A DNA stretch of 64,000 nt, taken from positions 3,658,001 to 3,722,000 of the forward strand of contig CP089276.1 of the NCBI GenBank assembly GCA_023920165.1, in the 5' to 3' direction. Position numbers and translations under genes: made by a program. Position 1 is the first letter of the stretch. Every line of letters begins with the position of its first letter. Below, one piece after another: positions 31,735-54,271 of this stretch. Source of the DNA: Curvularia clavata (Eukaryota). Under the pieces are notes generated by a model. It did not search any database. It was not told the origin of the DNA and worked only from the letters and a program-made list of their open reading frames with translations.

Positions 31735-34231
31735 GTGATGTGTGGAGGTGGGAGGTTTTCTTTGATTGGGGATGTGGGATGAGGCAAAAAAAAGGTTTGG
31801 ATATTTTATTTATGACTGTCATGATGGGTTGTCGTTCGAATAAGCGTAGTTTGAGACTCTGTAATTGTGCAGGATAGGACAGGGAGAAAATACATTGCTA
31901 CTGTACTAGATCCTCATACATATGTTTCTTCCGCAATGGTGTTGTTCTAAATTATCATTGACTGTGTATTTGTTCCTAATTTCGCTTTCTGCTGTTGTTC
32001 AGTATGTGGTCTTTGAGATGTATGTGGTGTGGTGCCAGTACAGGCTACTAACGATATCACCACCCACAAAAATAATGATATCCACGGTCCTGTGGTTGAG
32101 AGATTGGGTTAGACAAAAGATGTCTTATCAGAAGTGACTCTTCATAGGTATATAGCCACCATCATATTAAAGATTTATTTACGGTAGAATATGTTTGCAG
32201 TTGTTGGACAACATATATATTCAGAAATAACCCTATAGGAGGACATTGTCTTCAAATTGAGGACATATCATTACATGACTGCCTAAATGAGGAGGGGGCG
32301 TTCCACAGGTTGAATATTGCCATGTTAATTTAGATGTTTTGAACTATGTATGACAACAACACTGATATCAAATTCTTTGCCTCTCTGCAAATCCAGAACA
32401 TCGTAACCTTCGTGTACTATCGCAAAAGAATTATTCTATTCACGAACTCGATATCAAAACAAAACACAGACCTGTCAATCTATACATGCGTCACTATCAA
32501 GTAGTTCGCACGTCCACTGAAGGGATCGCGAACACGTTCGTCAATACAGAGCCGAGAATCACGTCTCAAAGACAGTAATTTAATGCTTTTACACAGAAAG
32601 ACAGCAGAATCAGTACCGAGAGCAAACGAATACGACGTCTCCGCAGGATTCCCCCCAAAAAGCAGAAGGATTTCTGCATGCATTAGTTCTCTCAACCGCG
32701 TTGTCAAAGGGGCGAAGCAGCCAATACAAATTCCAGCAGCAGAACGAATGGACGTAAACACGTATTCAACATGTACCGACTCAACAGTTTCACTGCCATC
32801 TTCACACGCCTCACTCTACTGTATCTTCTGGTTTCTATCACTCAAGCTTAATCCTTACTGCCTGGCCGGACCGATATACGCAAATCTACAAACAGCAGAG
32901 GTTCGCCAACCTGGTCGAGTCTGCGACGTGTCATGGCCGCGTTACGAGACGCCACTTCCACACAGAACCTGTTCTGGGTTGCGTTCCGCGGAGAAAGTGA
33001 CTCTTTTGTGACGCCAAACAACTTTAAGATTTGCACGAGAGACTGAGACAAAAGAAAACTGTATCATAGCAGTTGGATGCTCCGTTGTTTGATAGTCTCA
33101 TAGTGATAAAATTCATCATCGCATGTTGAATGCATATCCATCAAAGCTGCTGGCCACCTCTCTCTCCATATCAGTGGGAGGAGAAACTCCACTTCTCCCC
33201 CCTCCAGCTCACGTAATTGCATGACTCTGCGATCGACACACTGAGACAAAACGTAAATGGGCAAAAGGTGAACTAACCTTCCACCCCAGAAAACGATCAA
33301 AACCTTGTTTTTCTCCGTTGCCACAGTTTTAGTGCCTAAGAGTTCAATTGCGCGTTTTGGACAAACACGAGCAAAGCAATAGAATATTAGTATTGACAAT
33401 AAACTCTTCCTTGGATATATTCATGTAAATGAGTAGTTAATGGAGTGGGGAATATTTGCTCTCATTCTCTTTCCGTCTCCAAACTCCGGTCTACCCCGAA
33501 AATCTCCCCAGAAGAACCGCGTTCCCCCCCACCACGTCTTGTCCCCAATCTCCGCGACTAACAACAGGGGAAAGGGGAAGCGGAAGTCAGGACGAACACC
33601 GCTCTCGTGTTTCCACCCTCCTCGAGGGAAGATAACGCCGCAAGTGTCCGGCTATGCTAGCCATTGACGTACTGGATTCACATCCACATCCACGTCCTGT
33701 TAGTATGTAGTATGTAGACTCGGGAGACGCGACCCAAGCAGGCCATACGATCGGCAGCCAGGCCATGCCATGCCCATGCACGGGAAGGCGCCCTCCGTCA
33801 TTCCCTCCCTTCCCCTTCCCTCTCTGACTTTCCTCTACATACATACACTAGACTAGGCCAGGACGGCAGGATAACCCCGAGGAAGTAAGACCTGCACACA
33901 TCATCTACCGTAGCCGGGCTGCATCACCCCCAAAAATCATGCCATTTTGATACTACATAGGACCCTCTTTGCCCCGTGTGCCCCCCGGCTCTACATAATA
34001 CCCCCGACAAAAACCCATGTCTATTTCGACCAAGACGACCCCCCCGGTTCAGCTGCGTCGGCGACGAGCCCTTGGAGCCCGATGGGTGATGGGCGCTGGG
34101 GTCAGGTTCGGGCCCAGTTTCCAACTTCACGCTCACCCACACTTTACTACATGGGGAGGTAGATGAGAAGGGGGGAGGGGGACATGGGGCGCGGCAGTGG
34201 GATTTCCTTCCTTCCTTCCATCTCACTCCGC

Positions 34232-34249
34232 AAGAGAGAGAGAGAGAGA
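34232..34249 (+). repeat. (GA)n microsatellite
   Basis: About 8-9 AG units. Confidence 0.85.
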
Positions 34250-37200
34250 GCACGGTCAAGATTGCAGCGTAAGAAACAAGAACAGGACCGAGATACGGCC
34301 ACCAAACCCTACCCTGCCCTCGACCGTATACCGCATAATCCATGCTTTTGAGGCAGTCGGGCGTAGGGTGCGGTGCGTATGTTATTTCCGACTGCTACTC
34401 AACAAATAGATGTGGTTGGAGTGATGGTTTTGGAGAAGAGAAAAAAAAGGGGGGCGCTCCTGGCCCAAAGTTTATGTGTTGAGTACTCCGAGGAAAGGCA
34501 AGGTTTGGATATTTCAAAGTTGTAAGATGACTATTGCATTTCCTTCATTCTCTTATTGATTTATTCATTGTGTGTTGATTTGATTGCTATGAGTAAGCCT
34601 CGATTCGGTGCTGCTGACTCTTGTTTACTCGATTGCTCTCGATTGCTTGCTTTGAGACCCACAGAAAAGCGTGTTGATATCAGCCCCCACAGAGCGAGGT
34701 ACACATGTACATATTCAGCTGTGTTGCCCTTGTCCGAACCAACCACCCTGGCAGTTCCGTTGACCAGGAGCAGGCTGCTACAAATATCTGCCAATCAGTG
34801 TGTCTACTTTGAGCTCCTTTTGACGTTTCCCCGCACACTTGCGTGTCACTCGCTTCACTTATTTTTTCTTTCCATCTATCTCTATCTTTAACATTCTACA
34901 GTGGGTCTACGCGCCCAAGGACGCCTCGGAAGAGGGCGGCAGGCCCGAATGACAGCATCACATTTGCTGATCTTTTAGCAAGAGTAGCTTGGCGTAGCCC
35001 AGCCTAGCGGACTGGGTTGTAGGGGTAAGAGGAGGGGGCGTGTGACGCGTCCGTCGAGCTGGGCCGATTGGAAAAGATAGGCTTTGTCAGAAACGGGGAA
35101 GGAGAAGAAAAGGGCAACAACAGCTTTGTTGGGCAACATTCGCATACCGTTACCCGACAGTGAGGGTCGATCCAAAATCAAAATGAGTCGTTACATACAA
35201 AAGCTGATCACGCTATCGTGAGGTTAGTAATGTGGGTACACGAGAAGGGGGGGGGAAGGGCTGTGATGAAGGTCTAGGCGAATTGATGAGCCCAAATGCC
35301 TGATGACCACTCTCTCGGGATTCTCGGGACTTGAAATGTAAGAAAATGCAGAAGGCGGAGCGAGGACCTCGAAGCGTGGTAGTCTACACGCCATGTGGAA
35401 TGCTCTCAGCTCGGAGAATATGTCACTGTTGTGCGTTGCCAAAAGGCCTTCTCACCGAGCCGTTCGCAACACGTCAAGAAGGAAGCGTCACGCGCATGTT
35501 ATCTGCTTCTTTTGCCTGGAACCATGATTGCGCCCTCCAAGCCGTACCCTAGGTCGTCGACGCGCATCCGGGGAATAACCCTGTAACACATTTGGACACG
35601 ACAGTTTTGACTACCAATAGCTACCGAGCGGGCCTCTCGTGTCGGCGGAAGAAAGATCGCACGATTTTCGATCCCGGACATGGTTAGGGGAACCTGGTTG
35701 GACGGAGCCCAAAGGCCATGTGTGTAAGGCGGCTACCGGCAATATCCCAGTTCCAACCACTGCGCTGTTTGTCATGGGGAGGGGGCCAGGCGCTCTTCGT
35801 GGGCTGGCAATGCATGTTGAGATCGTGAAACGCGTGTTTGAGCATGTTCTCCGACATGTCAGTCAACGTTTCGTGGAACCTTAAAATAATATAGCAACCC
35901 CAAGGCTTGATCTTTGTCCGAGTCCCCTAGCGTCTGGCGGATATCTGGCAACTATGCGCAATCATTCGATAAGTAATCTGTTGCATGTCCTTGCGGATGC
36001 AACAAGTATTAGCGCCAAGTCCCGGATCAGAGGTCTAGAAGACGACAAGATTTGAAATTGAGGTGGCTGGGGCAATTTTTCAGGTTTCGGATATGTGGTG
36101 GAGCGACTCTATGTCGACCCATTTGCATCGCTCGATGTTTATTGTTACACGCTATGCGCGTGGGGCATTCGTCCGGTAATCGTATCCAGAGGACCCCCCA
36201 AGTAGGAAATGGGCAAGGCGAAGATCAGGTCTGTGATGAAAAGCTACGTGTACTCTTGGAAGAAGGAAGATCGTCTATGGCGCCCTGCCTTTTCGCACAG
36301 GCCTCGCTACAGCTAGCGTTCGTAGTAGCAGATACTTACACACCCAGCCACCGTGACTCGCGACACTACCCAGACGAGGTAATTCGCCAAGCGTCAGATG
36401 ATGACATGGACATTGAGGCTGTTGTGCGAAATTGACTGACTGGAGCGATTGGAGTAGCGCGTATACTCCATCAACACACATGGGCGAGTACAATTAGTAA
36501 GGCTGGCTTCTAGAAGGCCGCTAGAAGGCCGCTAGCATCGTGAAACACGTGCAGAGGCCACTTCCAAGCACTATTTCTGCTCTATGATGAAGGCCATATG
36601 CTGCCAGCTTGATTTGGGCAATGTTTGCGGAGGAGGCGTTCGACTTTCTACCAAAAGGCCCGAACTTGCCGTGGTTAGAATCAGCCATGCGACGCACCTG
36701 ATGGATTGCTTCTTGAAGGATCAAGCAGGGGCGCATGCAGTGTGGCTTCGAGTCCATATGCGAAAAAGAAAGGAGTAGACTTGGACCACTCACAGTGGCG
36801 CTTTACCATCTTCTCGCCCAGAGCTATCATGAAAAGCCTGATAGGCGTTCAAAAAAAAAGGAACGGTGCGGCGTAGACTCAAGTGGGCTGAGAAGTACAG
36901 GAAAGAAATGGAAGGATACATGCTTCCACCTTTCAGTCGATGGCGTTCTGCGAATGGCGGCGACGCGTTTCTAGTATATGCCCCGGCGTTTAAACTGTAC
37001 TCTACGTCTGTCGCGGAATGATTATTCGGAGACGCAAACGATTGGCCGGATCAACAAGATTGATCATCCGCGGCACATTGGATAGGTAGTTGTGTCTTGG
37101 TAGCTTTTGCGAACGTGTCGAGCGTATACATACTACGGACGTTCTAGTATGATGTGTATACTGGTGTCTAAACGGAACGGCAGCAGCCTGCCTGCCTTGA

Positions 37201-39482
37201 GATAGGATACGCAGGGATGGGCCTGGCAGTCGAGCGAGCCGAGGTGGGACCAGATCCGGTTGTCGCAGGCTGCTGCAGCGACTCGGAAGCTAGCGCTTAT
37301 TGACATCATTGAAGGGAGCTTGGCCTCATCGATGACTTGCTGCAGGAATCAGCCCATGTCTGAATTTGCGCCCAGGGAGGGTAGGCACAGGGTATGTGCG
37401 GGAGACCAGCATGTCCTTGTCGCGAGTCTGACATATCGCCTGGGATGGTACGGCCCACGTCGTCTCATGATTAAAGCCGGCAAGTATCGAGCCAATCAGC
37501 GATTTTGCGCCGCCTGTCAGAAATGCCGCTTATGCAGTAACGTTCGCAACTGAAAACTCGGCTGGAGAAATGGGCATTTCAAAGCACGAGTGAAGAGTTA
37601 GTCATTTGGCACATGGCTGGCGACATTGGTGCCCGTGTCATGACTTCTGAATGAGATCACGTACGTTCATGGGTGCTCGGGTTCGGCAGCCGTCTTTGCT
37701 TCGAATTTCCCGATACGAAACAAGCACCCTGGTCAGCTGGATTACCGTACAAGTTGGGGGATCCGACACCCTCCCAGGCTGGCATCGCAGCGACCCTCAA
37801 GGGCAGGCAGCGGGAAGCAAGGTCGAGGGGCCCAGGCGATCTTCGCACCGCGTTCGTGGCTTGGGGTTTTGAGATCCACAGATTACCTACATGGCAAATG
37901 TATGTAGTTTGTACGTGGTCTGTAGACTCGTCGTTGCTAAAGGCTAGCCGCGACGAGCCATTATCTTGCAGTCGACTCACATTTGCCGGTGCAAGAGTCA
38001 TCAACGATAGTGGCCTAGACTTCTTACCACGGCCCTAGCCTCATTTGCGCGAGAGTGTCTGTGGGTAGAGACTTGATCGCATTCTTTTGCAAAGATTGTT
38101 GCGACCACGAGCTTACCTGCCGATCACTACCCAACGTGTCTAGCACAAGGTCATGATGCTCGATAAGCAGTAAATCTCCCGATACACAGCGACTGGGGTG
38201 ATGATGCCTTGGTTTCCGTTTTCCAGCAAGACAGATAAGGCAGGTCTGAAAGATACTGTGTTCCTGTAATCCACAGATGCATAGCGGGGCGAATCGGGGC
38301 TACGCGGTAGTCGACGCAGCGGGCAGTAGTGGTGGTGTGCAGTGTTTTTTTTTTTCCTTTCAGAATTTAGCGCTAAGCAGGAGGCCAACGGGACGAGTCG
38401 GATCCATGTGCGGAAGCATCGCACAGCTTGTCCATTGTGATCGTCGACCGTTATTGAGCAGGCCTGCACCCCTGCTTCCCGCGGGTGGACAACGGTCATA
38501 ACCAGAGTCAGGTATTCAGGCGTCTCCATGGCCTGTCAGCGACGCTTCCGTACGCAACGGCCAGCCAAGCCTGCCAACGGCGCGGGTATCCAACAAAAAC
38601 AAGCCAGGCAGCTAGCGAGGGCGCTGGTAGAGGTGGTGTACTACCCAGGATTCGAATGCGTGGTGGGACAAGGGGGAGCAAGCGACGCCGCGCACGAGTC
38701 GGTTGTCGAGCCAAAGCAGCTGACGGTTTTTAGCTGCACGTCGCCCGTCAGCCCGTGTTTTGCGCTACAGTGCGGAGGAGCAGAAACGAGCAGCCGTCGC
38801 AAGTGGACTATGAAGAGAAAGCCGATGTAACACGGCATGCGTGCCAAAAGTCGCTTATAAGATCGACAAGAGAATTTCCACATGTCGTGCAACTACTGCA
38901 AGCATGGCCGGCCGTCAATGCGTCCAAAGGCGCCGTGGCGGACCAAGTGTTGAATGCGTTCAGGGAGAGTTCGGCGTGCACAAAAGCAACGGCAATTATC
39001 GTTGTCGAGTGCAGAGAGAGGTGTGCGAGATGAGCTCAGGCTGACGGCTTCGGATGCATGTCCGGCGGCGTGCGCCAGCCATGTGTGTGCCGCTGTTGCA
39101 CTCGCTTTGTGTAGTGCCCGACAAGTATATGGAGAGATCAAGCGGCGTTGGAATAGAGTTGATGTTCGCTCGGTACCTGACCTATCTCCCTGGTCATGAG
39201 CAAGGCCAGCAAGCATGCTCGCGCGCGCGCCCCCCAGGGTTTCTCCGCACTGCGAACGCCTCGCTCGGAACATTTACGAACCCAGGTCCCATGTCCGCGA
39301 TCGCGACAGGGAGGGGTTGTTCGCGACATGGGACGGCGCGCGCAATGTTTCCCATGGAACCCGTTTCTCGAAGCCTGTCAACCACAAAAGACACAGAAGG
39401 CGAACCTGCGTTAGTCTTGGGAGCAGTGCAGTGCTCAGGGCGGCTATCGGCACCAAGACGACGGCAGCCCAAAAAAACAAAA

Positions 39483-39518
39483 AGCAGCAGCAGTAGTAGC
39501 AGCAGCAGCAGGAGCAGC
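39483..39518 (+). repeat. Imperfect (AGC/AGT)n trinucleotide repeat
   Basis: agcagcagcagtagtagcagcagcagcaggagcagc. Confidence 0.8.
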
Positions 39519-41245
39519 CTCGAGACGGGTAATGAGGGAAAAGGGGACGCGCGAAGCAGTTAATGCACCGAGACGGGACTCTGTTGTCGGGTCTAGCGTT
39601 GCTGCAGACTGGAATTGAATCTGCTGTTGAAATGGGCTTCGGCGGCTATTCGCCCCCATTGTTGCAGCAAATGTTTCTTCAGGCGTAGTGCGCGTGCTCA
39701 GCATTAATGCCAATTTAACTTATCATAGGAACATAACAGGCGATACTATTCCCATAGCCGCATGACCGGGAGTTTGCGGACGGACAGGGCTGACGGGGGG
39801 CTGGCATGAATGGAGATGGGCCGAAGACGATGGACGCAGCAACGCCCACGCTCCTGTTCCCCGTGAGGTGAGGCCAGATGTTTGTGAGGTCGGTGCCATG
39901 GTTCCGCAGACGAGGGTTGGGAGATGCAGCGTCCCAGGGCCGATCAGCGGCGGTGGGAGCAGGCAGCCCATGACGCTGCTCCCGAGAAGCATTGCCGCGA
40001 GCAGCATCGCGTGGCCGATCTCGAGTGCGGTAGATGGGGGAGGGTGGATGGTGCGGGCGCGCATCGGCCAGTGGGCGCGGGCGACGTTGGAGCAGGCCGT
40101 GGTGGGTGGCTTTTTTGGAACAGGCTCGTTCTTTGGCTCACCGGCGGCAGCAGCCAATCAGCAGCTAGCAGGTGGGGCAGTCAGGTAGTGCAACTGCTAA
40201 AACGGTCGACTAGCGGCGGTGAATTGGACTCGAGAACAGGGCACGCCAGAGGCCACACACAGGACGCGGCAAAACTGTGGGAGAATAGGCCAGTGACGCG
40301 TACGGTAGGGCCGCGGAGGGGGCAAGCTGCGATCTGAGGGCGAGGATGGCACGTCTGTCTGCAGGGGCGAAATGAAGAGAGGGCGGAAGCAGCAGGTCGC
40401 ATGGTGCATGGCTATAGCAGGGCCGGGGCTTAGTTGGTATGAGGCCGGGAGTAAGGTAAGGGAAGTACCGTGGGGTCGCAACTGCCATGCACAGCTGCCC
40501 GCCTGCCCATCCATCTCGAAGGATTTAGCCGAGCGGACAGGGCGAGGGGGGCAGGCGGCAGCCACACAGCCCAGGCCATGCGCCTGCCCTCGACGCGGTG
40601 CATGGCAAGAGCGAAGCAGCGCAGCGCAGGGCAGAGAAAGAAAGGAAAGAGCGCATCTGGCGTGACGCAACGGGCGAAAATAAGGATCAAAATAGAAGGA
40701 GGGCGCCGCCGCCGCCTTGACCGCCCAGTCTGCCTTCCCCACCCGCTGGCGTTGCTGCCCGCCACCGGCTGCGACGCGTCGCGCTCAGCAAGACGAGCAG
40801 GTCACGTGCGACGCCGGAAGATGCGACGCCGCCTGTGTGCCACGCTCCGCACGCTGCCCTCGCAGCACACGGACGGCGCAACCCCCCCTGCGCGCGACAC
40901 AACGAGGGCATTCGGCGGCGATCCTTACTCGCGCCTCGCGCCCGCGGCTTGGGCGGTCGAAACAGGACCTGTGTCCGAGCGTGCAGCAGTAGGCAGGCCA
41001 GGGACAAGGCCGGCGTCGGGAGGCGTGCTAGCGGTTCCAGGTTGATTTAACGACCGGCCGTCTCCACCCTGCTCGCACTCTCTCACACGCCCAGGCCGTC
41101 GCCGTGACTAGTGCCGTCCGCTCTGCGCCTGAAATTGCGCAGGCGACGCTACTGCATCTCGTCGCAATCCTCGTCCATCGCAGCAACGCCCGGACCCTCG
41201 CTGCTCGGATCCTTCACGTCGACTTACCACCGCGCAATCACAACA

Positions 41246-44200
41246 ATGTCGCAGCCAAAAATCCCAGATAGGGCCCGCAACTATAAGGAAGACCAGGCGC
41301 CGGTAGCGTCGCAGAAAATGGTGAGTCGACTCTTGCTCCTTGCTGCTTGCACGTCCACCCCTACCGCACCACCCTCGCTCCCGCATCCCATCCACTCGCT
41401 CGCTTCTCTCGCAACCCCGTCGCCCCAGCTGCTGCTGCTGCATCCTCGACCGTTGGTGTTTCGACCGTCGCGCCTCTGAAGCCGCCTACTGTCCTGTCCT
41501 CATCCCCCAAAACCGTCGCGCCCGTTGGCAGCTTCATCCTCGCTTTTTTTGCATACTGCAGCAGCCACAATCGCCGCCTCCCCTCACCGCACGCACACGC
41601 ACGCACAAACTCTCAACCACCTTGACCCCAGCTGCGGCGCCTTTTTTGGCCTACATGGTACGCCCTTCCCGCCAAGCTGCCCTGCTCTCCAACTACACCC
41701 CTCCCCCCTGTCCAAGCGACTGTCGCTTTCCTGGTCTGCTCTGAAGCCAGTCCGCCGCCTCTTGTCACGCAACGGCCAGCAGCGGCACCCCGGTCAAGAG
41801 CGTAGTAGCCCTACCTCTCCACCGCAACTCTGCGCTGTCTGCTCCATCCTGCCAAATCTCTCGCCCTGCCCTTCATTAGCCTGCCCTCCCCTTCCACGCC
41901 TATAAACTATACCCTACCCTCCTGCCCTTCTTCCAGGCCCTGCCCCTCGCCTAGGTCCTGTTGCAGCACATCACTGCCCCTACCTACACCCTAGCCTACC
42001 AGCCAACCACCGCCTCCCCACTTAACCCCCCCACCAACTACTAAGCTTCTTGCTGCCACTCCCTGCACCGATCACCATCACGCTTGCTTTTCGACCTGTC
42101 TTCTTTACTTTTTTGGGAGCTTTTTATTTATCTTTTTTATCTTCTTACCTACTATCTGCACCTGCAGCCTTACTGACCTGGTCTTGTGTTGCAGCATCAC
42201 CCACACTCGGCGCAGGGCTTGCCACCGCCAAATCATCTTCCGGTGCACCATCCTAGGCCCGGCGTTGTTCATCAACACCAGCAGCACCACCCCGAGTCTC
42301 CCCATCAGTCGGTGCCTTCTCAGAGCCCGGCACAGGCACACTATCCGTCGCCGCAACACCCAACCCCCCAAGGTCCTCCTCAGCACCAATCGCCCTACAT
42401 CCAGCAGATCCAAGGACAGCAAGGACCACCGCCACCACCACCGCCGCAACCCCAGCCTCCGCAACAGCAGCAGCAACCGCAGCAACCACAGCAGGAGGTA
42501 CCTTATTATTCGCAGCACCACCCTAGCCCGTACAGCACAAACAGTGCACCAAGCAACTACTCCTCGTCAGGTATGTTCTGATTGTTTGCTTCTTCTCGCC
42601 TTTCAGCTCCGAGGTGTCCATTGTCAATGCACATGTGCATGCGCGCTCAAGTGTGCGTGCGCCGCCGTTCTTCATGACGATTAGACCTGGATGTCCCCCG
42701 CTGTATCTTCCATCAAAATAAACGCGTTGACCTGTACTGACCTGTCCCCAGAAACCCCAGAGCTCATGGCGGCCGCAACGATGAATCGGGGCGGATACCC
42801 ACCCATCTCATACCACACCCCGCAATCAAACTCGCCTGCTTCTGTTCAATCGCCTCAGCATGACCAGCATGGAAGGCCCATCTACGGACAACCGCCCAGC
42901 CAGATGCCTCAGTCCATGTACTACACTCCCTATGCCTCGGCGCCAGTTCCTCAGCAGTCACCTTACCAACAGCATCCTTCGAGTGCGCCTCAGCAGCCAA
43001 TGGCGACGCAGTCACTTCTCATGTCTCACCAGCAAAACCAGCAGATGCAACACCAGCACCAGCACCATCCTCAGACTCCAGGCATGAGCGGAAGCCCCAA
43101 GCCACGAATGTCACAGACGCCACTCCAGAGGCCACCATCGGGATTGGGCCCGCCTCAAGCTGCGCCCCAAGGTCCTCCCGTCGGTACTCCAAACATGCAT
43201 GCTGGCCCCCCAGGAGGACCCAACGTCAACCCCAATGCTGCACCTGGCCCCATTCCTGCAACCACTCCTCTGGTTGTTCGTCAAGATCAGAATGGTGTTC
43301 AGTGGATCGCATTCGAGTACTCTCGCGATAGGGTCAAGATGGAGTACACGATCCGTTGCGATGTCGAGTCGGTCAATGTTGATGAGCTTCCTCAAGACTT
43401 CAAGACTGAGAACTGCGTCTATCCTCGCGCCTGCTGCGCCAAGGATCAGTACAAGGGAAACCGTCTCCACTACGAGACCGAGTGCAACACAGTTGGCTGG
43501 GCCCTTGCCCAACTCAACCCTTGCCTGCGCGGAAAGCGTGGTCTCATTCAACGTGCTGTTGACAGCTGGCGCAACAGCAATCAAGACCCGCGCCTGAGGA
43601 GTCGTCGCGTGCGCAGAATGGCCAAGATGACCACGAGGAAAGCCCAAACGGCTACACATGGTAACCACATGGCTGGACCAGGTGGACCAGGTGCACCTGG
43701 GGTTCCCAACTCGGCCGGACTAACTGCACCACCCCGACCAAACATGGGCATGGGTGGCCCCCAGATGCATCATCACCATGATGGGCCAGGAGGGCCTCAC
43801 GGAGGACCGGATGATGTTAGCGGTATGTTTCACCAGATGTGATGTGATAAAGCGTAATTTGTTGGTTGTTGTTGTTGTTAAATGATACCTCTTGTCGTTC
43901 TTTCGCTGCATGTACATTATTACACTCTTTGATGTAATACCCCTTTCGATACCACCCTATGCATGTAATGCATCTACCCACACGCACACACATAGTCAGA
44001 TATGGTTGTTTTGTTATACGCAGGATGATTGGAAGACAAGTACGCGCCATTTGTTCGGACGTGCAAGCTAACTCTCTTTGTGTACAGCCAATGAATACGG
44101 TGAATCTCACACTCATCACCACCAAGCGCCCAATGGTCAGCAGTCATCACCATCCGACGTGCGCACCACGCAGAACTTTTACCCCAGCTTCCCCTCCAGC

Positions 44201-44972
44201 GATTCAGCTGCAGGAACAAGCGGTATGCCACCAATTCACGACGGATTGAGCCACCCTCCACCCCCACCTCATGCATCCGGCGTGGCAGTCTCAAAGCAGC
44301 AGGAGCAAGACGATGAAGAACGCAAACTTGCCATTTTCGGCGACTTACCGGACTCGAAGCGCCGCAAGTTCATCCTAGTTGATGATGCGCAACGAGGAAC
44401 AAGGGTTCGTGTACGAGTCACTCTTGACACCGTCAAGATGGAGGAAATGCCCGACTCGTACCGAAAGTCTAACTCAGTCTTCCCGCGCAGCTACTTTGCC
44501 ATGCAAATGACTTCTCCACCTGCAAGCCCTCGTGGTAGCAAGGTGTTTGCCGATGAGGCTGACGTCGAAGACGACCCCAGCTTTCCCCTGGCTGGATCTA
44601 CCATTGTCCCAGTGCCAACGCTCGATGGCGAAGCCCGTGTTCCCAAGCCGCGGCTTACTCGTTCGAAGCGATCCAAGGAAATCACGCTCAATGACCTTGG
44701 ATACCGGATGAGCTGGAGCCAGAGCCGTGTGTTCGCAGGAAGGACATTGTTTCTACAGAAGTCTCGTAAGTAACTAGTTGTATCCGTGTCACTAGACAAT
44801 AGACTAACCTGTGATAGTGGATGCTTATCGCAACAAGATGCGAAGCAGCATGATGGGCCAAGGTCAAGACGTGACTCAAGTTGCTCCGCACTTTGAGACC
44901 CGCGTCGGAAAGAGACGTTGGAACGAGAGAATCGAGAGGGTCAAGAAATTGAGGCGCGAGGGCTCTCCTTAA
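41246..44972 (+). CDS. Uncharacterised Q/P/H-rich protein with two diverged copies of a basic domain (putative regulator); exons 41246-41320, 42195-42570, 42752-43822, 44088-44765, 44818-44972 (784 aa)
   Basis: Strong start context CACAACAATG. Donors GTGAGT/GTATGT/GTATGT/GTAAGT with TACTGAC or CTAAC branch sites. All junction phases are consistent and the total CDS is 2355 nt. Confidence 0.8.
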
Positions 44973-46197: not shown

Positions 46198-49100
46198 TGT
46201 GCGTGCCTTACTTGCGCTATCTACTTGTGTGCGCGTGTTGCAAGACTGGCGTTTTTTTTTTTTAAAAAAAATTGTCCGTTTGGCTGGGGATGTGCGCATG
46301 GGTCCTCTGAACTGGTTTACCGGCAAGGGTTGTCTGCAAGGTGAGGGAACGGTAGAGGGAACGGCAACAGCGGATGCAAACGGATGCAAGTTCCCATGAT
46401 CTCACTTTGTTCCCATATTAGGCTTTCTTGGGGGTGCGAGAGATAGAAGTATATCCCTGCTTATTATCGTATTCAGATATATCACCTTGCCGATGCCTAC
46501 AGTAGATACTAGTGCTTAAGGGGCAGTACATGGATTCTTGGTATTGGATATGTTAGAGTGTAGGAGAAAGAGAGCGGCACGACTGTCTCTTTTTTGCCTC
46601 AGTTTTTTTGGCGCGACAGTCGGCAGTTGGGATGGGACATGTACCGTTGAGGTGATTAGAAGGGGGAACCATGACTTAGGACAATTATTGTTGCTAGGAG
46701 TGGAGTATGAGGATCTTTGCCTCAAAGATCATTAGTAAGGTTGTGAGAGATGATGACCTCGTAAACCGGGGGTAATCATTTCGTGGTCTAGATCGGGAGA
46801 TTCTTCCCTTTCCATGATTTTTTCTTTTGTGTTCTGGATAGAGAGAGATTGAGGTCCGGGCACGTTCGGAGGATTACCGGCTGATGTATGTGTGCCTGGG
46901 TCCGACCATGTTTGAGCGAATATTCATCATTCGAACATGTATTTTTACTAGCGTAGGCAACTGATGAGCAAGACTTGAAACCATCTAAACGCGAAGGGAG
47001 AAGTGATTCGCCTGCGCAAGCTTTCTCTTGGCCTGGATTGACCTTGCTGACCAATGTCTTACTCTCCGCTTGTCTTTCTTCATACGGCTCACTCTTGGGC
47101 TCCTTGTCCCTGTTCGCTTTCCTTCTTCTCTCTTTACTTCTGTCGCGATCTTCCTGCCTAGTTATGTATGAGACGCGTCGCATGATTGCCTTTCGTGATA
47201 CTAGGAGTATCGCAGACATGCCATCGCGTTAGGGCCTCGCTTCGCCGTCATCGTGATTCAGATATCGTGCCAGTCCCCATGCGACACAATGCCGGATCGG
47301 CGAGTTTAATAGCCGCTGTCACAAACGGGGCTAAGAAGAAGCTGCAGCAGGAAAAAAAAGGGCCATTTGAGTTGCGCCGAAGAACCAGCGTTCGGCCAAC
47401 AAATCCCTATCTTTTCATTCGCTCCGAAGCAACCGGTATAATGATGCGAGTTCCCACACCTTTTTTCTCGCTTGGCAAATGACGCGTTGCTGCTTTGCGA
47501 CCCCATCGCCGAACCATTGCCTAGTGTACAGTAGTGCGCCCGTTGGGAAAAAACGGTCTTCCCGGATACAACCCCTGTCCCCCCATACAACATCGCGTAG
47601 AGCCTGCAGCGCGCATGCTTCTCTAGCATCAACCCACTGTCCCATATTAGCTGGTTCGTCGCATGCATGTTTCCGCTCTGCTGGAACGGTAATGGCGCTG
47701 TGGGGATGGAAAGAGCCTTTGGTCAGATTGAGAATGGTGAACGATGGATGGGCACAATGAGTTTGAAAAAGAAAAAAGTTGGCTCTGAAGGCCCTAATGT
47801 TCACACTAGCGCTTGGAAATTTGACGTCCAAGTTTCTTCTTTGAGAGCGTGGACTCGAGCGGCCGGTGAGACAGACTTGCCCCCACATGCAAGCAGAGCG
47901 AGTAAGCCTGTACGACAAAGGGGGCTCTCGGGGCCCGAGGACGTCGAAGGGAGAAGAAGCATGCTTTCTTGGGGCCAAAAAAGTCTGATAGACGTCTCGT
48001 GTTCTGTCTAGCCTGGCCTGTGAAGAGCTCGTGCCTGCAACGTACCGTCGTAAGGACGGTCGAGATAAACATGAGGAAGGTGATTGGAACTAGAGGCATG
48101 AGCCGAGAATGAAGTATCAAGAGAGCATCTGAAAGTGGCGGCCGCTGTTGGTATTACGGGCGTTGACCTTATCTTCCTCGAAAACTGGGCTGATGAGATC
48201 TGGATTACTATAGTTCTCGCTTCAACTTCAGAACTTCTGCTGAATATCAGAAGCGTTCATGAGTTGAGAGAGAAGGTCTGTGATGAGCTATGTGATGATT
48301 ATGAGTGCTTCCAAGAGATCTTGGGTCGTTGCCAATTGAACCTGGCATCGCTAGAGAGTCAAGCGTGACTCCTTGAGGATGGTGTCTGCATCCGATGACA
48401 AAGAGTCTTTCTGTGGGTGAATCGACTTGTCGCCGTGTTACTACAGATCAATACATACGAAACCAGGCTTGTGGTCCGCTGGAGGGTTCTTTGGGGCTGT
48501 CACAACGACTGTGGTGGAGTTTCCTGACTCTTCAGAGGTTCGTTGGTGAACTTCGTTCTACTAACATCCCTAACAGCACTACAGTTCCTGAATGATCATT
48601 GATATTTCTTGTCTGAATTTTACCATGATGCTTCTTTGTCACTTCATTAGAGTTACCTTGAAGGGCTTCTCCATCGCTAGGCTTTACTTGGATTGTCTCT
48701 GATTTCATATCGACGTACTCACAGAACTTGACTTCAGAATTTTAACTGTTCTCTGTAAGCCTTTCCCGTAGTCACTGTGCTGAACAGAGATTGAATCGAT
48801 CTTCTGAAAAGCTTAGCTCTGTAATGGGGCTGAAGTATCTCAACTTGGCGTCCTACTGAATGGATTGAACTGAAGTCAGTACTATCATTTACAGAAGAGC
48901 CTCATAATTAACCCCCGTATTGTGTTCTTGATCACTTTCGTGTGTCGCTCTTACGTTGCATGATTCTTCTTCTAATATAAGTATTTGATTATGTGGAATA
49001 GACACACAAGGCAACCAATGACCTTGGTTTGAGAACGAACAAGCAAGCCAGGATTTTGTTCAAGACGAAAAGTGGTAAGACGTAGATACATAGAGGCACG

Positions 49101-49551
49101 ATGCGAGATATTTAGGATAGACGAACGTATATTAAATCAGATACGCGATCAACAATCCAGAGCTGTCACACTCGTAATTGTGACACAACGCTTCGTTCAA
49201 TATTGCGTGTACTGACTCTGTGAATTTAAGAATAGAAGCGTTTGTTTCGATCTATCCTTATGCCATACATGGGCAGTTCTAGCAGATCTTGTCGAATATT
49301 TCCTTCTCCTTCGTAGCTTCTACGAGCATCCCTAGCATGCGACCCTATGTATTCTGCAAACTGGCTTCTTGGAACCCCATCTCACCGCCACGGATGGCCT
49401 ATGCAATTAATCCAGTATGACTCTGGTAGAGCATCTCAAACGGGTCCTCTTATGCAAATCCCCATGCGTCATCGACGTATTGGACGCGCACACGCGCTGT
49501 CGAAGCTGGGATTGAATCTGTAAACGATATCCATCTTCGAGCTCTCTTTCT

Positions 49552-50115
49552 TCACAAGTACTTCTTCGCTGCTGTAGCAACTCTTTGTCTGAACACTGGA
49601 CTCTTGATAACCTCTCCGTTTCCAACCGCGAAGAATGGGTTCATGATAGTCTTGACCCATGCCTCGTACACATCAACCATGAAGTTCTTGACCGCCTCCT
49701 CAGTAGCAGGGCTGTTCGGATTGTATAGCCCGGCGCTTCCACCTAGTGCCGCTCGTCCACCTGCCAGGCTCCCTCTAGCACCTCCGGCGCCTCCACTCGT
49801 GAGTCCCAGACTTTCATCGCGTGGCCGTGTGAGCAACAGAAAGCGGGTGTTTCCACCTGTTATCCAACATGACACATAACAGTTCTGATACTTGTCGATG
49901 TGCTTGAGGTACATTGGTGCGGAGCCGCTGGACGTGGAGGGACCCCATTGGACTTCTTCGACGATGTCAAGGGCGGAGTGCAGAATAAATGGGACAAGGG
50001 CGCGCTCAGCTGGTGTGTAGTTTGCGACGCCTGTCCCACCACTTCGAGATGTGCCAAAGTCATGGGTAAAGAGGGGAACGTCCAGAGGCGAGAGTATGGA
50101 GAACGTATACGACAT
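49552..50115 (-). CDS. TRS20: TRAPP complex subunit Trs20/TRAPPC2 (sedlin family)
   Basis: FILHSALDIVEEVQW, MYLKHIDKY, VYEAWVKTIMNPFF and C-terminal AKKYL, all typical of sedlin. Confidence 0.9.
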   Translation of the reverse strand: MSYTFSILSPLDVPLFTHDFGTSRSGGTGVANYTPAERALVPFILHSALDIVEEVQWGPSTSSGSAPMYLKHIDKYQNCYVSCWITGGNTRFLLLTRPRDESLGLTSGGAGGARGSLAGGRAALGGSAGLYNPNSPATEEAVKNFMVDVYEAWVKTIMNPFFAVGNGEVIKSPVFRQRVATAAKKYL

Positions 50116-50416
50116 GGTGGAGTGTAACAGATGTGTGTGCGAATGCGCTTGGCTTGAGGGTCGACGCTGATTAGAATAGCTGTACTTTACAATCAGGCAG
50201 CCTTTTACACGCTACGTTTGAACGAGAGGCGTTTAAGGTTTCGTAATTCGTAAATTCGTAAAGTCGGTGGTGGAGTTGTAGCTACAGGAAGCGTGGAGTG
50301 GTGCTCAGCTTCCCCACGCTAACTGGGATGTTCGCCAAGAAGTCCGCGGGAGTGTCTGCGCAGAATATCGCAACTTCAGTTGCACAGGCTCGGCCTTGTA
50401 ACTCCCACACCTCAAC

Positions 50417-50975
50417 ATGTTCGGTCCTTTCCGCCTCACAAATCCACTATCGGGTGGTTTATTATGGTGCGTCTCTTCGCAATCAATTTCCTGCGCAATT
50501 GCCCGCTGCCGTCAGCGTGGGAACTTCTTCGCTATCGCTTCCACCAATTCTCAGAGATTGTATCTAGAAACTGTACACTGACACCGGCATAGGAAAGTGC
50601 CATGGCGGCTGTCCAGGCACCAGAAATATCGCCACCGTGAGCGTCTGCGACATGTCGACTCCGTCGTTTCCACCCTCGATACCGCACTACGACGAATGGG
50701 CCAAAGCATGAAGAAGGTGGAGCGCTGGAAGACGGAGATGCCAACCGAACAGGAGATGCTACCAAAGGACAAATACACTGTTTTCGATCGGAAAGTAAAG
50801 AGATACCGAAAGGGAATACATAGTAAGTGGCGCATGCTGTGGTACTGGACAGCGAATACGATAGGAGGACAAAATCCAGGTCCTGGAGAATTATCTACGA
50901 ATGTGTTCTGACGACTATGCAGAGGTGCCAAAGTGGACAAGGGTCAGTCAACGACTCAACCCCCCGGGTTTCTAG
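50417..50975 (+). CDS. MRPL31: Mitochondrial large ribosomal subunit protein L31 (mL60); exons 50417-50466, 50593-50822, 50923-50975 (110 aa)
   Basis: Spliced product MFGPFRLTNPLSGGLLWKVPWRLS...PKDKYTVFDRK..YRKGIHKVPKWTRVSQRLNPPGF matches the fungal YmL31 pattern. Confidence 0.92.
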
Positions 50976-51351
50976 ATGGTCATCGCAACAAGGAGCAGCA
51001 AACGAATGTATATTTCACTGTAACTATACGGACTGCATTCACATGCGGCGCTACGGAAAGGTGGAAATCCAGTATTTGTGGTGCCACCACACAGATGTAT
51101 GACCTCGGTTTCACTGAGCCTAACTATGATCGTAAAGATCTTGCTTGGTGAAGTACTCTTGGCCCATGAGATGCAATCATTGAATTCTTCACAAGTGCAG
51201 TATATTCATCCATTACTCATGCAAGACATTACTCTCTGTTCCACCTGTATTACACACGCGAAATCCTCGAATAAATATAACAATCAGTACAAGAGGTCCT
51301 CCGTGCTTTCTCGACGTCCATAAACATACAAATTTCATGACGAATTTCTAA

Positions 51352-53802
51352 TCAGAACAGCATACTTAGCTCATTAGACTCAATCAATCCGTCGAGTCCG
51401 AATCCCTGAGCGTTCCACCCCATATCAAGAGGGAGGAATCCATTCCAAAGCGCCGCATCATCGGCCGGTGCATTGTTTCCACCGCCATGTACCGCAAATT
51501 CGTTTACAGCGCTCAAATCTGTCCATCCAAAATCACCCATTTGTTCCGTGATTGCTGGACTTTCACCCGTTCCATTACTGCTGGCTTGTGGACTCGTCTG
51601 GTGGCCAAGTACTGGGTGTTGTGGGAAGCCGTTCTGGTCCACTGGTGTACTGGCAATGTGGGTACCGGGATGGTGGAATGATGACCGACTTGTTTTGTCT
51701 TTCCTCGGCACCTTCGCCCAGAGCAGTTTAAGGAGCTGAGAGTAACGGGATCCAGGGTGCTGGACACCGCTCCCAGACCCCACAGCACTGCGTTGAAGGC
51801 GTGCTACCGTTTCGTTGATCATGGCGCGGATGGCACGATCCTCGTCTGCACTAATGACACCCGTGCAGCGGGCGCGGTAGAGAAAGACGCCTGCGTAAAC
51901 AAGGTAGAGGTAATATCGAAGTGGCATGAAGCGCAATGAGCGCTCAGGATCCACGAAGTTATTGACTGTGGTGAGGATTGCCTTTGCGGAATCGAGGCCT
52001 TCATAAATAAAACGTGCGTCGCCCACGGCTCCTACGTTGTTCACGAACACGCGCTGAGGGGCTTGCATGCGACCCATACCGTTATTGGCTGGACTAGCTG
52101 CCATGGATTCGGCAGACGTGGATGAAGGCAGAGCTCGAAGAACAGTAGCTTGAAAGGCGAAAGCATTGGTATACAGACGCAGATAATCGTAAGACATGAG
52201 GAGGCATGCTTTGAGAGGTGGGGAGCATGTTAGGGTGCCCCATACGCTCTTCCAGCCGTACATCGCTGACCGAAAGTCGTCGATGAATTTGATGTAGCTA
52301 CCACTCATTTGTGAGCGGAAACTCGAACTGGGATTTGAGTAGAGTGTATCGTGAACGTTGCTGAAGAGCTGTGTGAGCTCTAGATTGGCCTGAAAAATGG
52401 AGGCGTGATCCTCTTCATTTGGGTTCTTGGGAATCAATGAAGGGTAGTCTTCTCGTCGCAAAGTGGTCAAAGGCCCAGGACCACGAGACCAGAACGCTTT
52501 TCCGATTCTGATACTGATATGGCGATCAGAGACATATGCAGCCGTCCAGATGAGACGCTTCCGATGGTGGTCTTCGTCCTTGTTTTGGTCTACGAAGCGG
52601 AACGAATACTTGTCCAGTGCGAGAAAGTAAGCGATTCTCAAAGCGAGACCGACATGCATCCAGCTCTCTTTGTCTTCCTCTCCTTTACCAACCTTCCCCG
52701 AGCCGCGCTGGGTATACGGTGCCCATTCGGCTAGAATAAGTAGAGCCTCAACTGCTTCGATGCCGGCTTCGCCTCCTGCAGCGAGCGCAGAGACCAGGTT
52801 TTTCATATGTTCGGAGCATGCTTCATATATGTGCGGCTCGTCGACGAGGTCTTTCGAGGCGATCAAGAGAATGGCAGTCAGGAGATGTTGTTCTTTGTTC
52901 ACCATGTCAGAGAGTCGGGATGTCTCGAAAGCGTGAGCCGGAGCAAGAGGGTAGAATGGGTGGTATAGCTGCTGGTAGCGGACAAGTAGCTGGCAGAGAG
53001 AATGGACGGTAAGGATTCCTCGATCCAACAGCGGATAAGAGAAGGATAGGGATGGCGCGGGCATGCTTAATGAACCTCTGGTACGCGATACGGCGTTGCC
53101 ATTCTCATTGTTTCCTTCGTTCGAGCTCGTCTCCCCTGCGACTCTGGCCAGTATTCCTAGGGCATCAGATGGATTTTGAAGATTCGAGAATGGAAGCTCC
53201 TCTGAATTTGACGAGTCTGATTGCTGTCCCTGGAGTTCATCTCCAAACTGTTGCGGTCCAGCATCTTGCGACCATGTTGTCCCAAGGTTGCCCAACGTAT
53301 GGAAGCTTCTTTCCGGCGCGTTCGCGGGAAGCGCTGGTAACGGCTGTTGTGGTTGCGCTTCTGGCTGCGACTCTGACGGCAGATGTGCCTGCGATTCGTC
53401 GATTCGTTTCTTTTTTCGTTCCCTTCTTCCACCACGATTGCTACCACCGAGTACGCATTCGAGATTGTCGCGCTTGCATCGAAGGCACGGTATAGAGTTG
53501 TTCGAGTCCCTATGGTATTATGTCAGACCCAAACTGATGTATTGAGCTCTGTCATCAGTCGACGACCGAATCCTGACCCTCAGTGATAAGAAACATCTAC
53601 GCTAGACTTTGCACATGAGTATGCTTCGTTCCTGAGACGGGCCGCGAACCAACATTACAACCACTTACAGCAAACACCGACTCTTCCTTTTCCTGCAGTT
53701 CAAGCACGCTATCTGCGTTCTCTTGGTCTTTGAAGCTTCATCTTCATCCGGGTTGGCGGCTGCCTGCGCGCCGACAGGCTGTTGTGGGGCATTTGCTTCC
53801 AT
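51352..53802 (-). CDS. Zn(II)2Cys6 transcription factor, Aro80-like; exons 53802-53669, 53509-51352
   Basis: Spliced cluster ACLNCRKRKSRCLLDSNNSIPCLRCKRDNLECVLGGSNRGGRR. LQNPSDALGILA motif and fungal TF middle homology region (SDRHISIRIGKAFWSRGPGP). Intron 53510-53668. Confidence 0.9.
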
Positions 53803-54185
53803 GCCTCATTTCGAGTGGGTAACTGGTGTCGGTGTTTGAAGCTGTCGGGGACTGGGGAAGAATGCGGAGACGCTGGCGTCGGTTGTTGCTGAGGCTTCGG
53901 GCCGAGCTGAACACGACGGTGGCGGAGCCTGGAACTGTCGGTTAACGGCAATGGACGGTGTCGGCCTGCTGTCCGTCTGGTACGCCATAGCTATCATTCA
54001 ATGTTCTAGTCTTGACATAGCAACACCAATGAGAGCTATCGGGGCATTTCCATGGTGCCACCCAGCCCTATCTCGTGATACAATTGCTGTCAGCCAAGAA
54101 AAATTCATCTTGAACGGCGCTCGTGAAAAGATTTGAATTGCTTTCATATTCGTACAATTCTGCCATCCTTCCATCAATCAAACAG

Positions 54186-54271
54186 GGCTCGGTGGTGTAG
54201 TTGGTTATCACGTCAGTCTAACATTCAGTTAGGCACACTGAAGGTCCCGAGTTCAAACCTCGGCTGAGTCA
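54186..54271 (+). tRNA. tRNA-Val(AAC): tRNA-Val(AAC) with 12-nt intron (54224-54235)
   Basis: Acceptor stem GGCTCGG/CTGAGTC. A-box TGGTGTAGTTGG. Anticodon arm TCAGT-CT-AAC-A^C-ACTGA. T arm CCGAG-TTCAAAC-CTCGG. Pol III T5 terminator at ~54302. Confidence 0.95.

Follow-up and report, generated by a model that had tools for sequence, protein, structure and literature searches.

The five-exon gene on the + strand at 41246–44972 of the window (the 64,000-nt stretch of Curvularia clavata DNA analyzed here) encodes a protein of ~760–784 amino acids (aa) that carries two diverged copies of a single domain, DUF8032 (PF26087). We consider it probable, at roughly 60%, that this tandem pair is a sequence-specific module recognizing TTAGGG-type repeats and that the gene is the ortholog of Neurospora crassa NCU02644. 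A preliminary description of the same DNA had proposed an undescribed type of transcription factor with a duplicated basic domain. The word "undescribed" was too strong, as the domain is catalogued as PF26087 and DNA binding by the N. crassa protein was published in 2015, and "transcription factor" goes beyond the sole assay, which concerned binding to telomere repeats.

The gene model was compared with P0001, a 742-aa ortholog from Alternaria panax for which an AlphaFold model was also examined. The homology-based model of five exons yields 784 aa with 88% identity to P0001, and every intron is of the GT..AG type. Splice joins were checked on contigs from four public runs, one of which is recorded as RNA, and spliced forms of the gene were found in them. 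In the homology-based model, exon 1 (41246–41320, MSQPKIPDRARNYKEDQAPVASQKM) agrees with P0001 and P0004 at their N-termini. The contigs continue unspliced through the GTGAGT donor at 41321, which is not used, and support a first exon at 41283–41657 with an ATG (41655–41657) at its 3' end, spliced to 42195 through a GT..AG join (41657|42195) in three of the four runs (X9, X10, and X1). The main open reading frame therefore begins with M|HHPHS… and encodes 760 aa. An upstream open reading frame of 77 codons is also present, and the 5' end of the transcript lies upstream of 41283. Exon 2 (42195–42570) encodes disordered, low-complexity, H/P/Q-rich sequence, for which the P0001 model has pLDDT values under 50, and its join to the next exon (42570|42752) was present in all four runs, placed within one base in two of these. 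According to the frame, model, and joins, exon 3 (42752–43822) runs from low-complexity sequence through DUF8032 copy 1 into the beginning of a linker. Intron 3 (43823–44087, 265 nt; join 43822|44088 in three of four runs) holds a (GTT)n run whose length differs among the runs, with indels at 43864/43865. Exon 4 (44088–44765), placed by frame and gene model, comprises the acidic, His-rich linker and copy 2 as far as …LFLQKS, and intron 4 (44766–44817; 52 nt, GTAAGT…TAG, phase 1; join 44765|44818 in three of four runs) interrupts helix 2 of copy 2. The frame, the match to P0001, and the gene model assign to exon 5 (44818–44972) the end of copy 2 (LDAYRNK…), its basic tail helix (GKRRWNERIERVKKLRR), and the TAA stop codon. 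The joins DDVS|ANEYGE and LQKS|LDAYRNK are identical in the window gene and P0001. A deviant noncanonical join in run X10 (44752→44809, CT..AC) lies on a contig that differs more from the window; we attribute it to the sequence of a relative or to an alignment artifact. The peptides quoted in the preliminary description were recovered in the stop-to-stop frames 42685–43842 (copy 1) and 44072–44773 and 44808–44972 (copy 2), the last of them (…LFLQKS|LDAYRN) crossing an intron.

Copy 1 spans aa 318–450 of the 784-aa model (43252–43650). It was delimited by 99% identity to PF26087-bearing proteins and by an AF2 model. It contains three beta strands, and its helices comprise a short one, two long ones, and a basic one that forms the tail (RLRSRRVRRMAK…). 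Copy 2 occupies 44348–44765 plus 44818–44969, split by intron 4. Its beta part (44348–44497; …RRKFILVDD…VRVRVTLDTVKMEEMPDSYRKSNSVFPRS) was assigned by hhalign against copy 1 and by strands E560–565 and E570–575 of the P0001 model. The alignment and the P0001 model then place an insertion of ~52 aa (44498–44656), modeled in part as an extra hairpin, ahead of the first portion of the helices (44657–44765; …EITLNDLGYRMSWSQSRVFAGRTLFLQKS), which was again assigned by hhalign against copy 1 and the P0001 model. In A1, a 75-row alignment of family members, the insertion measures 31–67 aa in the first 22 rows and 0–36 aa in 47 distant rows. When the copy 1 and copy 2 sub-alignments of A1 were compared by hhalign, they matched with a probability of 100% (E 2.7e-43) over 106 columns. 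BLASTP between the two window copies returned E 3e-6, limited to the 30-residue first segment, and window copy 1 matched both segments of NCU02644 copy 2 (E 4e-4 and 7e-4). With copy 1 as the phmmer query, 69 of 150 representatives among the matches listed contained two or three matched stretches, and the order of secondary-structure elements is alike in both copies of the P0001 model. These comparisons confirm, at the level of sequence, that the protein contains two homologous domains produced by internal duplication, as had been proposed from an alignment by eye.

Membership in PF26087 was established indirectly, through homologs. The precomputed PF26087 annotation was found on 120 of 120 homologs among the matches listed, in each of three listings, and copy 1 is 88–99% identical to all 120 of the 120 PF26087 proteins among the matches listed. 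The nearest ESM-Atlas clusters, to be taken as leads only, are likewise DUF8032 (scores 0.80–0.87). Pfam and NCBIfam scans of the window exons gave sub-threshold noise only; the scanned Pfam library did not contain the PF26087 model and returned no family even for four of four known DUF8032 proteins, which explains the blank result. There was no Pfam match to Zn2Cys6, bZIP, APSES, velvet, or WOPR domains, the families to which the preliminary description could not assign the domain, and with respect to these types nothing exceeded Z 3.6 at the fold level among 48,161 chains.

The phmmer search with copy 1 retrieved 513 representatives at E ≤ 1e-3, and family members are present in Rozella, chytrids, Mucorales, Glomeromycota, and Pezizomycotina. 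Rozella and the examined representatives of the chytrids, Mucorales, and Glomeromycota each showed two stretches. From these matches, the DUF8032 family appears to be confined to fungi and fungus-wide, with an ancestral tandem layout, and the duplication appears to be older than the radiation of fungi. Basidiomycota, Saccharomyces, Candida, and Schizosaccharomyces were absent from the named matches listed, which is an impression only. Because the telomeres of Basidiomycota are also of the TTAGGG type, their absence among these matches speaks against a simple link between the family and this repeat. A full-text literature search returned no paper containing "DUF8032" or "PF26087" and none connecting DUF8032 with DNA binding.

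AlphaFold predicted both copies with confidence: in each, a beta-hairpin sheet is combined with helices, the C-terminal one basic. The remaining protein is disordered and P/Q/S/H-rich. The AF2 model of the copy 1 stretch has a mean pLDDT of 84.2 and a pTM of 0.74, with a lower pLDDT of 61–67 in the tail. In the P0001 model, the 10-residue blocks of the domains mostly have a pLDDT of 90–98, 359 of 742 residues fall below 50, and order is confined to the two DUF8032 copies. The residues outside the domains (n = 463) are 20.5% P, 14.3% Q, 10.4% S, and 8.6% H, in keeping with the low complexity noted earlier; that these parts are activation or condensate regions is a conceivable interpretation of their composition.

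Searches for a structural relative were negative. Foldseek against the PDB gave no match at E ≤ 1e-3 with either the full-length P0001 model or the copy 1 model. In VIA-align against 48,161 chains, the highest Z scores were 4.0 with the full P0001 model and 3.6 with copy 1, and re-examination of the Foldseek top 1000 reached 3.4. HMG-box and RuvA domain III (Z ~3) were rejected as relatives, as the similarity covered two helices and no more. Against PDB sequences, copy 1 produced one chance-level row (a lysozyme, E 0.077), and the profile of alignment A2 produced no rows at E ≤ 1. As far as the predicted models allow, no solved structure resembles DUF8032, which does not amount to proof of a new fold. 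A predicted complex of copy 1 with copy 2, run without alignments or controls, scored 0.00 and counts as no answer. A pseudo-dimeric architecture, as proposed in the preliminary description, would have the two copies packed against each other, which goes beyond these models.

Both copies are basic and separated by an acidic linker: copy 1 carries a net charge of +9, the parts of copy 2 carry +5 and +13, and the linker carries −9. The Arg/Lys-rich tails seen earlier are real; the copy 1 tail helix has 9 K+R per 24 residues (net +8), the copy 2 helices plus tail have a net charge of +13, and the RSRRV of the tail is nearly invariant in the alignment. Copy 1 averages 87.3% pairwise identity among the first 22 rows of A1, a value that drops to 60.4% when all 75 are taken, and it holds 24 of the 25 invariant columns. 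Invariant positions, numbered on P0001, include N329, Y332, R346, E350, N354, W358, Q375–D379, R382, and S392–R393, and invariant residues occur in an N-x-V-Y-P-R turn, an E-x-x-x-N-x-x-G-W helix start, a Q-R-A-x-D helix, and the R-S-R-R-V tail. Copy 2 is conserved far less (37–65% mean pairwise identity), and the linker between the copies varies from 17 to 109 aa across 47 distant rows.

Over 155 residues, window copy 1 shares 85% identity with NCU02644 (P0348), and the copy 2 region is collinear with it at 46% identity over 228 residues (E 1e-83 and 4e-53; global identity 48.9%). NCU02644 shares a 90% cluster with the Sordariales matches. Judged from similarity and collinearity, the window gene is its ortholog. 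In the accessible text of Casas-Vila et al. (PMC4650311), NCU02644 is a TTAGGG binder with no recognized DNA-binding domain. NCU05718 is a second N. crassa TTAGGG binder that lacks a known domain. Of 709 quantified proteins, 12 were enriched on TTAGGG relative to a TGTGAG bait, NCU02644 among them (log2 difference 6.05), and the recombinant NCU02644 protein bound directly to double-stranded TTAGGG repeats and not to a shuffled repeat, undiminished by single-stranded competitor (PMC4650311). The assay was an in vitro pull-down of the full-length protein on concatenated repeats, and the duplicated domain went unrecognized in that 2015 study to the extent of its accessible text (PMC4650311). Through this ortholog, the nucleic-acid binding that the preliminary description had predicted gains support (PMC4650311).

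Since NCU02644 binds TTAGGG without a recognized domain, the DNA-binding module that is missing from its description is likely to be its pair of DUF8032 copies. Sequence-specific binding normally requires a folded module, and the DUF8032 copies are the sole ordered parts, which counts in favor of this assignment, as do the basic charge of the copies, their extreme constraint, and the ancestral compact tandem. We infer that the DNA is contacted by DUF8032 rather than by another part of the protein, that the two copies both participate, and that the window protein behaves as NCU02644 does. The gene product would then be a nuclear duplex-DNA-binding protein in which one repeat or half-site is engaged by each copy through its beta-hairpin/helix core together with the basic helix at its C-terminus. 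The same orientation of the two domains would allow direct repeats to be read, and the long P/Q/S/H-rich regions would serve as flexible arms for partner recruitment or regulation. Copy 2, which is less conserved and has a large insertion in this lineage, may not contact DNA. Because no known DNA-binding fold was recognized, the structure lends no independent support to the proposed module.

The site of action would be telomeres or else internal or promoter TTAGGG sequences. The literature found reports no in vivo telomere localization or phenotype, and no experiment mapping the DNA-binding region of any family member. Within the 64-kb window, no TTAGGG dimer was present with up to one mismatch allowed. 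It is possible, if rather less likely than the tandem TTAGGG module, that DUF8032 binds DNA as a promoter regulator at internal TTAGGG-like sites in the manner of Tbf1, with the arms as activation regions and with no role at telomere ends; the place of action would differ and the mode of binding would be alike. Long Q/P/H-rich disorder would be typical of transcription activators, and Saccharomyces cerevisiae Tbf1 recognizes subtelomeric TTAGGG according to the accessible part of Casas-Vila et al. (PMC4650311). The N. crassa gene is expressed at ~44 TPM, NUC-1 and NUC-3 bind its upstream region, and it rises ~2-fold in a nuc-1 deletion under phosphate starvation alongside ribosome-biogenesis genes, as given in the available portion of PMC12506109. 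Against a promoter regulator, the literature found holds no regulon or genome-wide binding data for any member, and the sole assayed target is the telomere repeat.

As the assay used full-length NCU02644, the binding could reside in the basic tails or elsewhere in the protein. The DUF8032 cores would then be protein–protein interaction or scaffold domains, with TTAGGG bound by the Arg/Lys-rich tail helices, by other basic stretches, or by one copy only. From the first strand through helix 2, the copy 1 core carries almost no net charge (+1, pI 7.7), next to a tail of +8 with a pLDDT of 61–67, and neither Foldseek nor VIA-align recognized a DNA-binding fold. We nevertheless consider this division of labor improbable, as a shuffled repeat with the composition of TTAGGG was not bound (PMC4650311), and such discrimination is rare for unstructured basic tails. 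Moreover, the tail is contiguous with the core and conserved together with it (RSRRV nearly invariant), so the tail belongs to the domain as it occurs in Pfam-annotated proteins.

An eL24-like ribosomal or ribosome-associated protein can be dismissed almost entirely, as no Pfam family, including Ribosomal_L24e, was matched at E ≤ 0.01 in four of four full-length members, nor in the window exons, and as a mostly disordered protein of ~760–784 aa differs from eL24, a small basic protein of about 150 aa. The label "ribosomal protein L24E/eL24", which occurs as "ribosomal protein L24E" among database names and is followed for NCU02644 in the text of one paper (PMC12506109), is unsupported and already contradicted by the missing profile match and the wrong size; the data tables of that paper, in its available part, give "hypothetical protein", and other propagated labels conflict ("SEC24-like", "duf814 domain containing"). 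The propagated misannotation has already colored the interpretation of a regulon in this 2025 paper (PMC12506109, available part).

The tandem DUF8032 pair turns the gap in the literature on the binding domain of NCU02644 into a directly testable candidate. A wider proposal, for which we see the odds as evenly balanced, is that DUF8032 constitutes a hitherto unrecognized, fungus-specific class of sequence-specific duplex-DNA-binding domain with a fold absent from solved structures. Its use as a tandem pair would be obligate and older than the split of Rozella and chytrids from other fungi; DUF8032 would recognize direct repeats of the TTAGGG type at telomeres, promoters, or both, and would be the "missing" domain of NCU02644. 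If confirmed, a new DNA-binding fold would join the short list of fungus-specific ones, and a function would be given to a pan-fungal DUF with near-histone-level conservation in Pezizomycotina (87% mean pairwise identity).

Pfam gives no function for PF26087, and its precomputed annotation names the family without a per-protein domain count; the two diverged copies, the second interrupted by an insertion in Pezizomycotina, come from the present analysis. NCU02644 resembles the window protein in its collinear two-domain layout, its low-complexity arms, and its size (736 aa versus 760–784 aa), but it comes from Sordariomycetes rather than from a Dothideomycete, which the best matches place near Pleosporales, and binding is known for NCU02644 only. 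The MedA/ACON-3/Acr1/Ren1 proteins are, in the accessible text of PMC3503810, similarly fungus-specific and nuclear, with low-complexity N-termini, a conserved basic C-terminal region, a fold that is unknown, and no recognized DNA-binding domain. They appear to form a different family, set apart here by names, accessions, and a motif compared by eye: the N. crassa MedA ortholog, in which the counterpart of the conserved MedA 346–557 region would lie, is ACON-3 (GenBank ADL28820.1; PMC3503810) and not NCU02644, the MedA motif KNRIRR was absent by eye from the window frames and P0001, and the names Ren1, Acr1, and ACON-3 do not occur among the Fusarium, Pyricularia, and Neurospora cluster members.

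The Myb/homeodomain binders (Tbf1, Tay1, Taz1, and TRF1/2) differ from DUF8032, whose predicted fold has a beta sheet and a best solved chain at Z 3.6; no Pfam match to Myb/SANT or homeodomain families was obtained in the window exons (E ≤ 1) or in four full-length members (E ≤ 0.01). NCU02644 is like these binders in its assayed target, duplex TTAGGG. Tay1 has two Myb domains and the TRFs dimerize, giving two DNA-reading units per functional molecule.

The region 43249–44972 belongs to the 3' two-thirds of a gene on the + strand, for which homologue guidance gave a five-exon model (41246–41320, 42195–42570, 42752–43822, 44088–44765, and 44818–44972; introns all GT..AG). The 784-aa product is 88% identical to a 742-aa orthologue from Alternaria panax (P0001) and 85% identical to a Parastagonospora protein (P0004). 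Local Pfam and NCBIfam scans of the window exons were blank; because four of four known DUF8032 proteins also matched nothing in the local Pfam copy, the blank Pfam scan is attributed to the date of the library. Precomputed PF26087 assignments were found on 120 of 120 homologues in each of three listings, among the matches listed, and many of these are named "DUF8032 domain-containing protein". The ESM-Atlas neighbours, taken as leads only, are DUF8032 clusters (scores 0.80–0.87). The domain, which the preliminary description had put forward as a candidate undescribed type, is therefore already named. Some family members carry the discordant names "ribosomal protein L24E", "SEC24-like protein", and "duf814 domain containing protein", labels that appear to be propagated misannotation; the first of these (eL24) was unsupported by any profile search run. 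One propagated label was adopted in the text of PMC12506109.

DUF8032 occurs twice in the protein, as copy 1 (43252–43650) and copy 2 (44348–44765 and 44818–44969), and the peptide strings from which an internal duplication had been proposed are all present in reading frames of the locus. When copy 1 (43249–43650) was compared by BLASTP with the exon-4 part of copy 2, only the first segment was recovered (E 3e-6, 30 residues). Against NCU02644, which a cluster look-up gave as the Neurospora crassa family member, window copy 1 recovered the first as well as the second segment of copy 2 (E 4e-4 and 7e-4). An exhaustive phmmer search of 1.84 billion representatives with copy 1 resulted in 513 proteins at E ≤ 1e-3, of which 426 reached E ≤ 1e-10 and 248 E ≤ 1e-30. 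Although the query held one copy, it aligned to two or three stretches in 69 of 150 proteins among the matches listed. Nine picked named homologues and 66 of these 69 representatives were aligned at full length (A1, 75 proteins); P0238, P0262, and P0264, in which the best match begins at query residue 31 or 46, were left out. The A1 consensus by itself reveals the repeat, with unit 1 reading …NCVYPRA…YETECN..GWKLA.LN…GKRGLIQRAVDS.RN…RSRRV and unit 2 reading …N.VYPR…E..CNELGWKLAWLN…AGK…LQRALD.YR.K. Profile–profile comparison of the two regions cut from A1 gave a probability of 100% and an E-value of 2.7e-43 over 106 aligned columns, establishing the duplication as real.

AlphaFold2 modelling of P0001 with A1 predicted two confident domains, with 186 residues at pLDDT ≥ 90, 10-residue blocks averaging 91–98 in copy 1 and 85–96 in copy 2, and 359 of the 742 residues below 50. 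In both predicted copies a beta hairpin or small sheet is followed by a short helix, then by two long helices, and finally by a C-terminal helix; copy 2 has an additional hairpin inside an insertion and is preceded by an acidic helix. Window copy 1, folded with a 113-row alignment, reached a mean pLDDT of 84.2 and a pTM of 0.74, with a weaker basic tail helix (61–67). Foldseek searches of the PDB with the full P0001 model and the copy-1 model gave no matches at E ≤ 1e-3. VIA-align against 48,161 representative chains peaked at Z 3.6 with copy 1 and at Z 4.0 with the full model, where by the tool's own note models lacking a Foldseek match typically reach 7–8, and a second look at the top Foldseek matches peaked at Z 3.4. 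Searching PDB chains by sequence and by profile also drew a blank. With nothing similar in the PDB, there is no known DNA-binding fold to appeal to, and by the tool's caveat the absence of a look-alike among solved structures does not prove that the predicted fold is new.

Among the matches listed, named members are fungal without exception and comprise Pezizomycotina (all major classes), Neolecta, Lipomyces with Dipodascopsis and Magnusiomyces, Mucorales (more than one protein in each genome), Glomeromycota and Endogone, Basidiobolus and Dispira, many chytrids, and Rozella. None from Basidiomycota, Saccharomyces, Candida, or Schizosaccharomyces was seen among the matches listed. Several distinct DUF8032 proteins per species are common in early-diverging fungi, with at least five rows listed for Rhizopus stolonifer, at least three for Calcarisporiella thermophila, and at least two for Basidiobolus ranarum; the Pezizomycotina clusters examined have one locus per species. 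In Fusarium oxysporum f. sp. rapae, several short (168–232 aa) single-copy proteins (P0208, P0284, and P0285) are encoded on one 1.77-Mb contig beside a normal 738-aa orthologue and are possibly lineage-specific paralogues. A 1014-aa protein from Lobulomyces angularis (P0488), in which PF26087 is accompanied by Pfam domains of the GAPDH and metallo-beta-lactamase types, most likely results from the merging of gene models.

The history of the pair was examined by dividing A1 into its first 22 rows, consisting of nine named Pezizomycotina and 13 unnamed representatives (at least 45% overall identity to P0001; taxa not confirmed), and a distant group of 47 sequences (rows 29–75), with rows 23–28 in neither group. 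Mean pairwise identity in the first 22 rows is 87.3% for copy 1 and 65.4% and 55.9% for the beta part and helices of copy 2; the corresponding values in the distant group are 60.8%, 37.2%, and 48.0%. The linker between the copies spans 17–109 aa in the distant rows and 105–209 aa in the first 22, and the copy-2 segment from the VFPRS turn to the first long helix spans 0–36 and 31–67 aa, respectively (~52 aa in the window protein, 44498–44656). The equivalent copy-1 loop is always 11–14 aa. As both linker and segment are shorter in the distant rows, the alignment indicates that a compact tandem pair is the ancestral state and that the longer linker and copy-2 loop insertion arose in Pezizomycotina.

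Splicing was checked with contigs from four public runs aligned to the locus, of which X13 alone has RNA on record. The join 42570|42752 was found in all four runs, with X9 and X13 placing it to within one base, and 43822|44088 and 44765|44818 were each found in three. At the 5' end, three of the four runs depart from the homologue-based model by reading through the 41321 donor and then splicing 41657|42195. In this form the last codon (final three bases) of exon 1 is an ATG (41655–41657), translation from it yields 760 aa (M|HHPHS…), and the homologue-model start at 41246 becomes that of an upstream ORF of 77 codons (41246–41479). Because Alternaria and Parastagonospora gene models likewise contain the upstream peptide MSQ…YKED.APVASQ.M, the 41246 segment may be a uORF under conservation or else a first coding exon used as an alternative. 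This discrepancy leaves 43249–44972 unaffected. Intron 3 contains a (GTT)n tract (43850–43880) whose length is not the same in all sequencing runs: X9 has an additional GTTGTT, and X1 is 3 bases shorter.

The flanking large ORFs (1778–31731 and 47418–63998) resemble ordinary housekeeping genes, and nothing about these large ORFs suggests that they form a functional cluster together with the DUF8032 gene. Their products include a sodium:dicarboxylate symporter, a trehalose-phosphate-synthase-type GT20, an MFS transporter, a RINGv/MARCHF6-like E3 (22060–26997), a Fungal_trans regulator (51355–53517, - strand), a biotin carboxylase, sedlin, an inositol-pentakisphosphate 2-kinase, an F-box/WD40 protein, an ATG17-like protein, and a methyltransferase. 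The ~9 kb upstream of the gene (32000–41000) contains no stop-to-stop frame of at least 200 aa. Together with a NUC-1 peak 2463 bp from the NCU02644 ATG, reported in a 2025 mBio paper (PMC12506109), this ORF-poor stretch is a hint that genes of the family may have an extended regulatory region or UTR on their 5' side. The same paper gives NCU02644 expression of ~44 TPM, and its own tables label the gene "hypothetical protein".

The window protein and NCU02644 align collinearly, with 85% identity over copy 1 and 46% in the region of copy 2. According to Casas-Vila et al. 2015 (PMC4650311), an N. crassa pull-down with concatenated TTAGGG versus shuffled TGTGAG baits placed NCU02644 among the 12 of 709 quantified proteins enriched on TTAGGG (log2 difference 6.05, -log10 p 7.5), and recombinant full-length NCU02644 bound the TTAGGG bait directly, with binding undiminished by single-stranded competitor. 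Of the preliminary description, the observation stands and the interpretation stands in part: duplication and nucleic-acid binding hold, the latter via NCU02644, and the undescribed status does not, NCU02644 having been assayed in 2015. The transcription-factor role and the pseudo-dimeric arrangement are putative. No publication was found under "DUF8032" or "PF26087", searches on NCU05718, ncTay1, and ncTbf2 returned nothing relevant, and none of five papers found on the Neurospora telosome and TTAGGG from 2016 on concerns NCU02644 by title or abstract.

Net charge in the window protein is +9 for copy 1 (core +1, tail helix +8), +5 for the beta part of copy 2, +13 for its helices and tail, and -9 for the linker. 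As the sole folded, conserved, and basic parts of the protein, the DUF8032 copies are, we infer, the best candidates for sequence-specific contact with duplex TTAGGG. Alternatively, the cores could be protein-interaction modules and the basic tails alone could touch DNA, a reading that does not square well with the ability to tell TTAGGG from a shuffled repeat of the same composition. Two like-oriented domains on a flexible linker would suit DNA repeated in direct orientation better than palindromes, and the basic tail helices, which are predicted with less confidence, could become ordered on DNA. Candidate sites of action are chromosome ends, internal TTAGGG sites, and promoters. A role as transcription regulator would be in keeping with the Q/P/H-rich arms. 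What is new is the linking of an orphan TTAGGG binder to the tandem DUF8032 architecture, the evidence for that architecture as ancestral in fungi, and the lack of a solved look-alike of the domain. The studied gene is in itself an unremarkable orthologue within a family that is known but has hardly been characterised, and the finding would gain interest if the DNA-binding role of DUF8032 is true.
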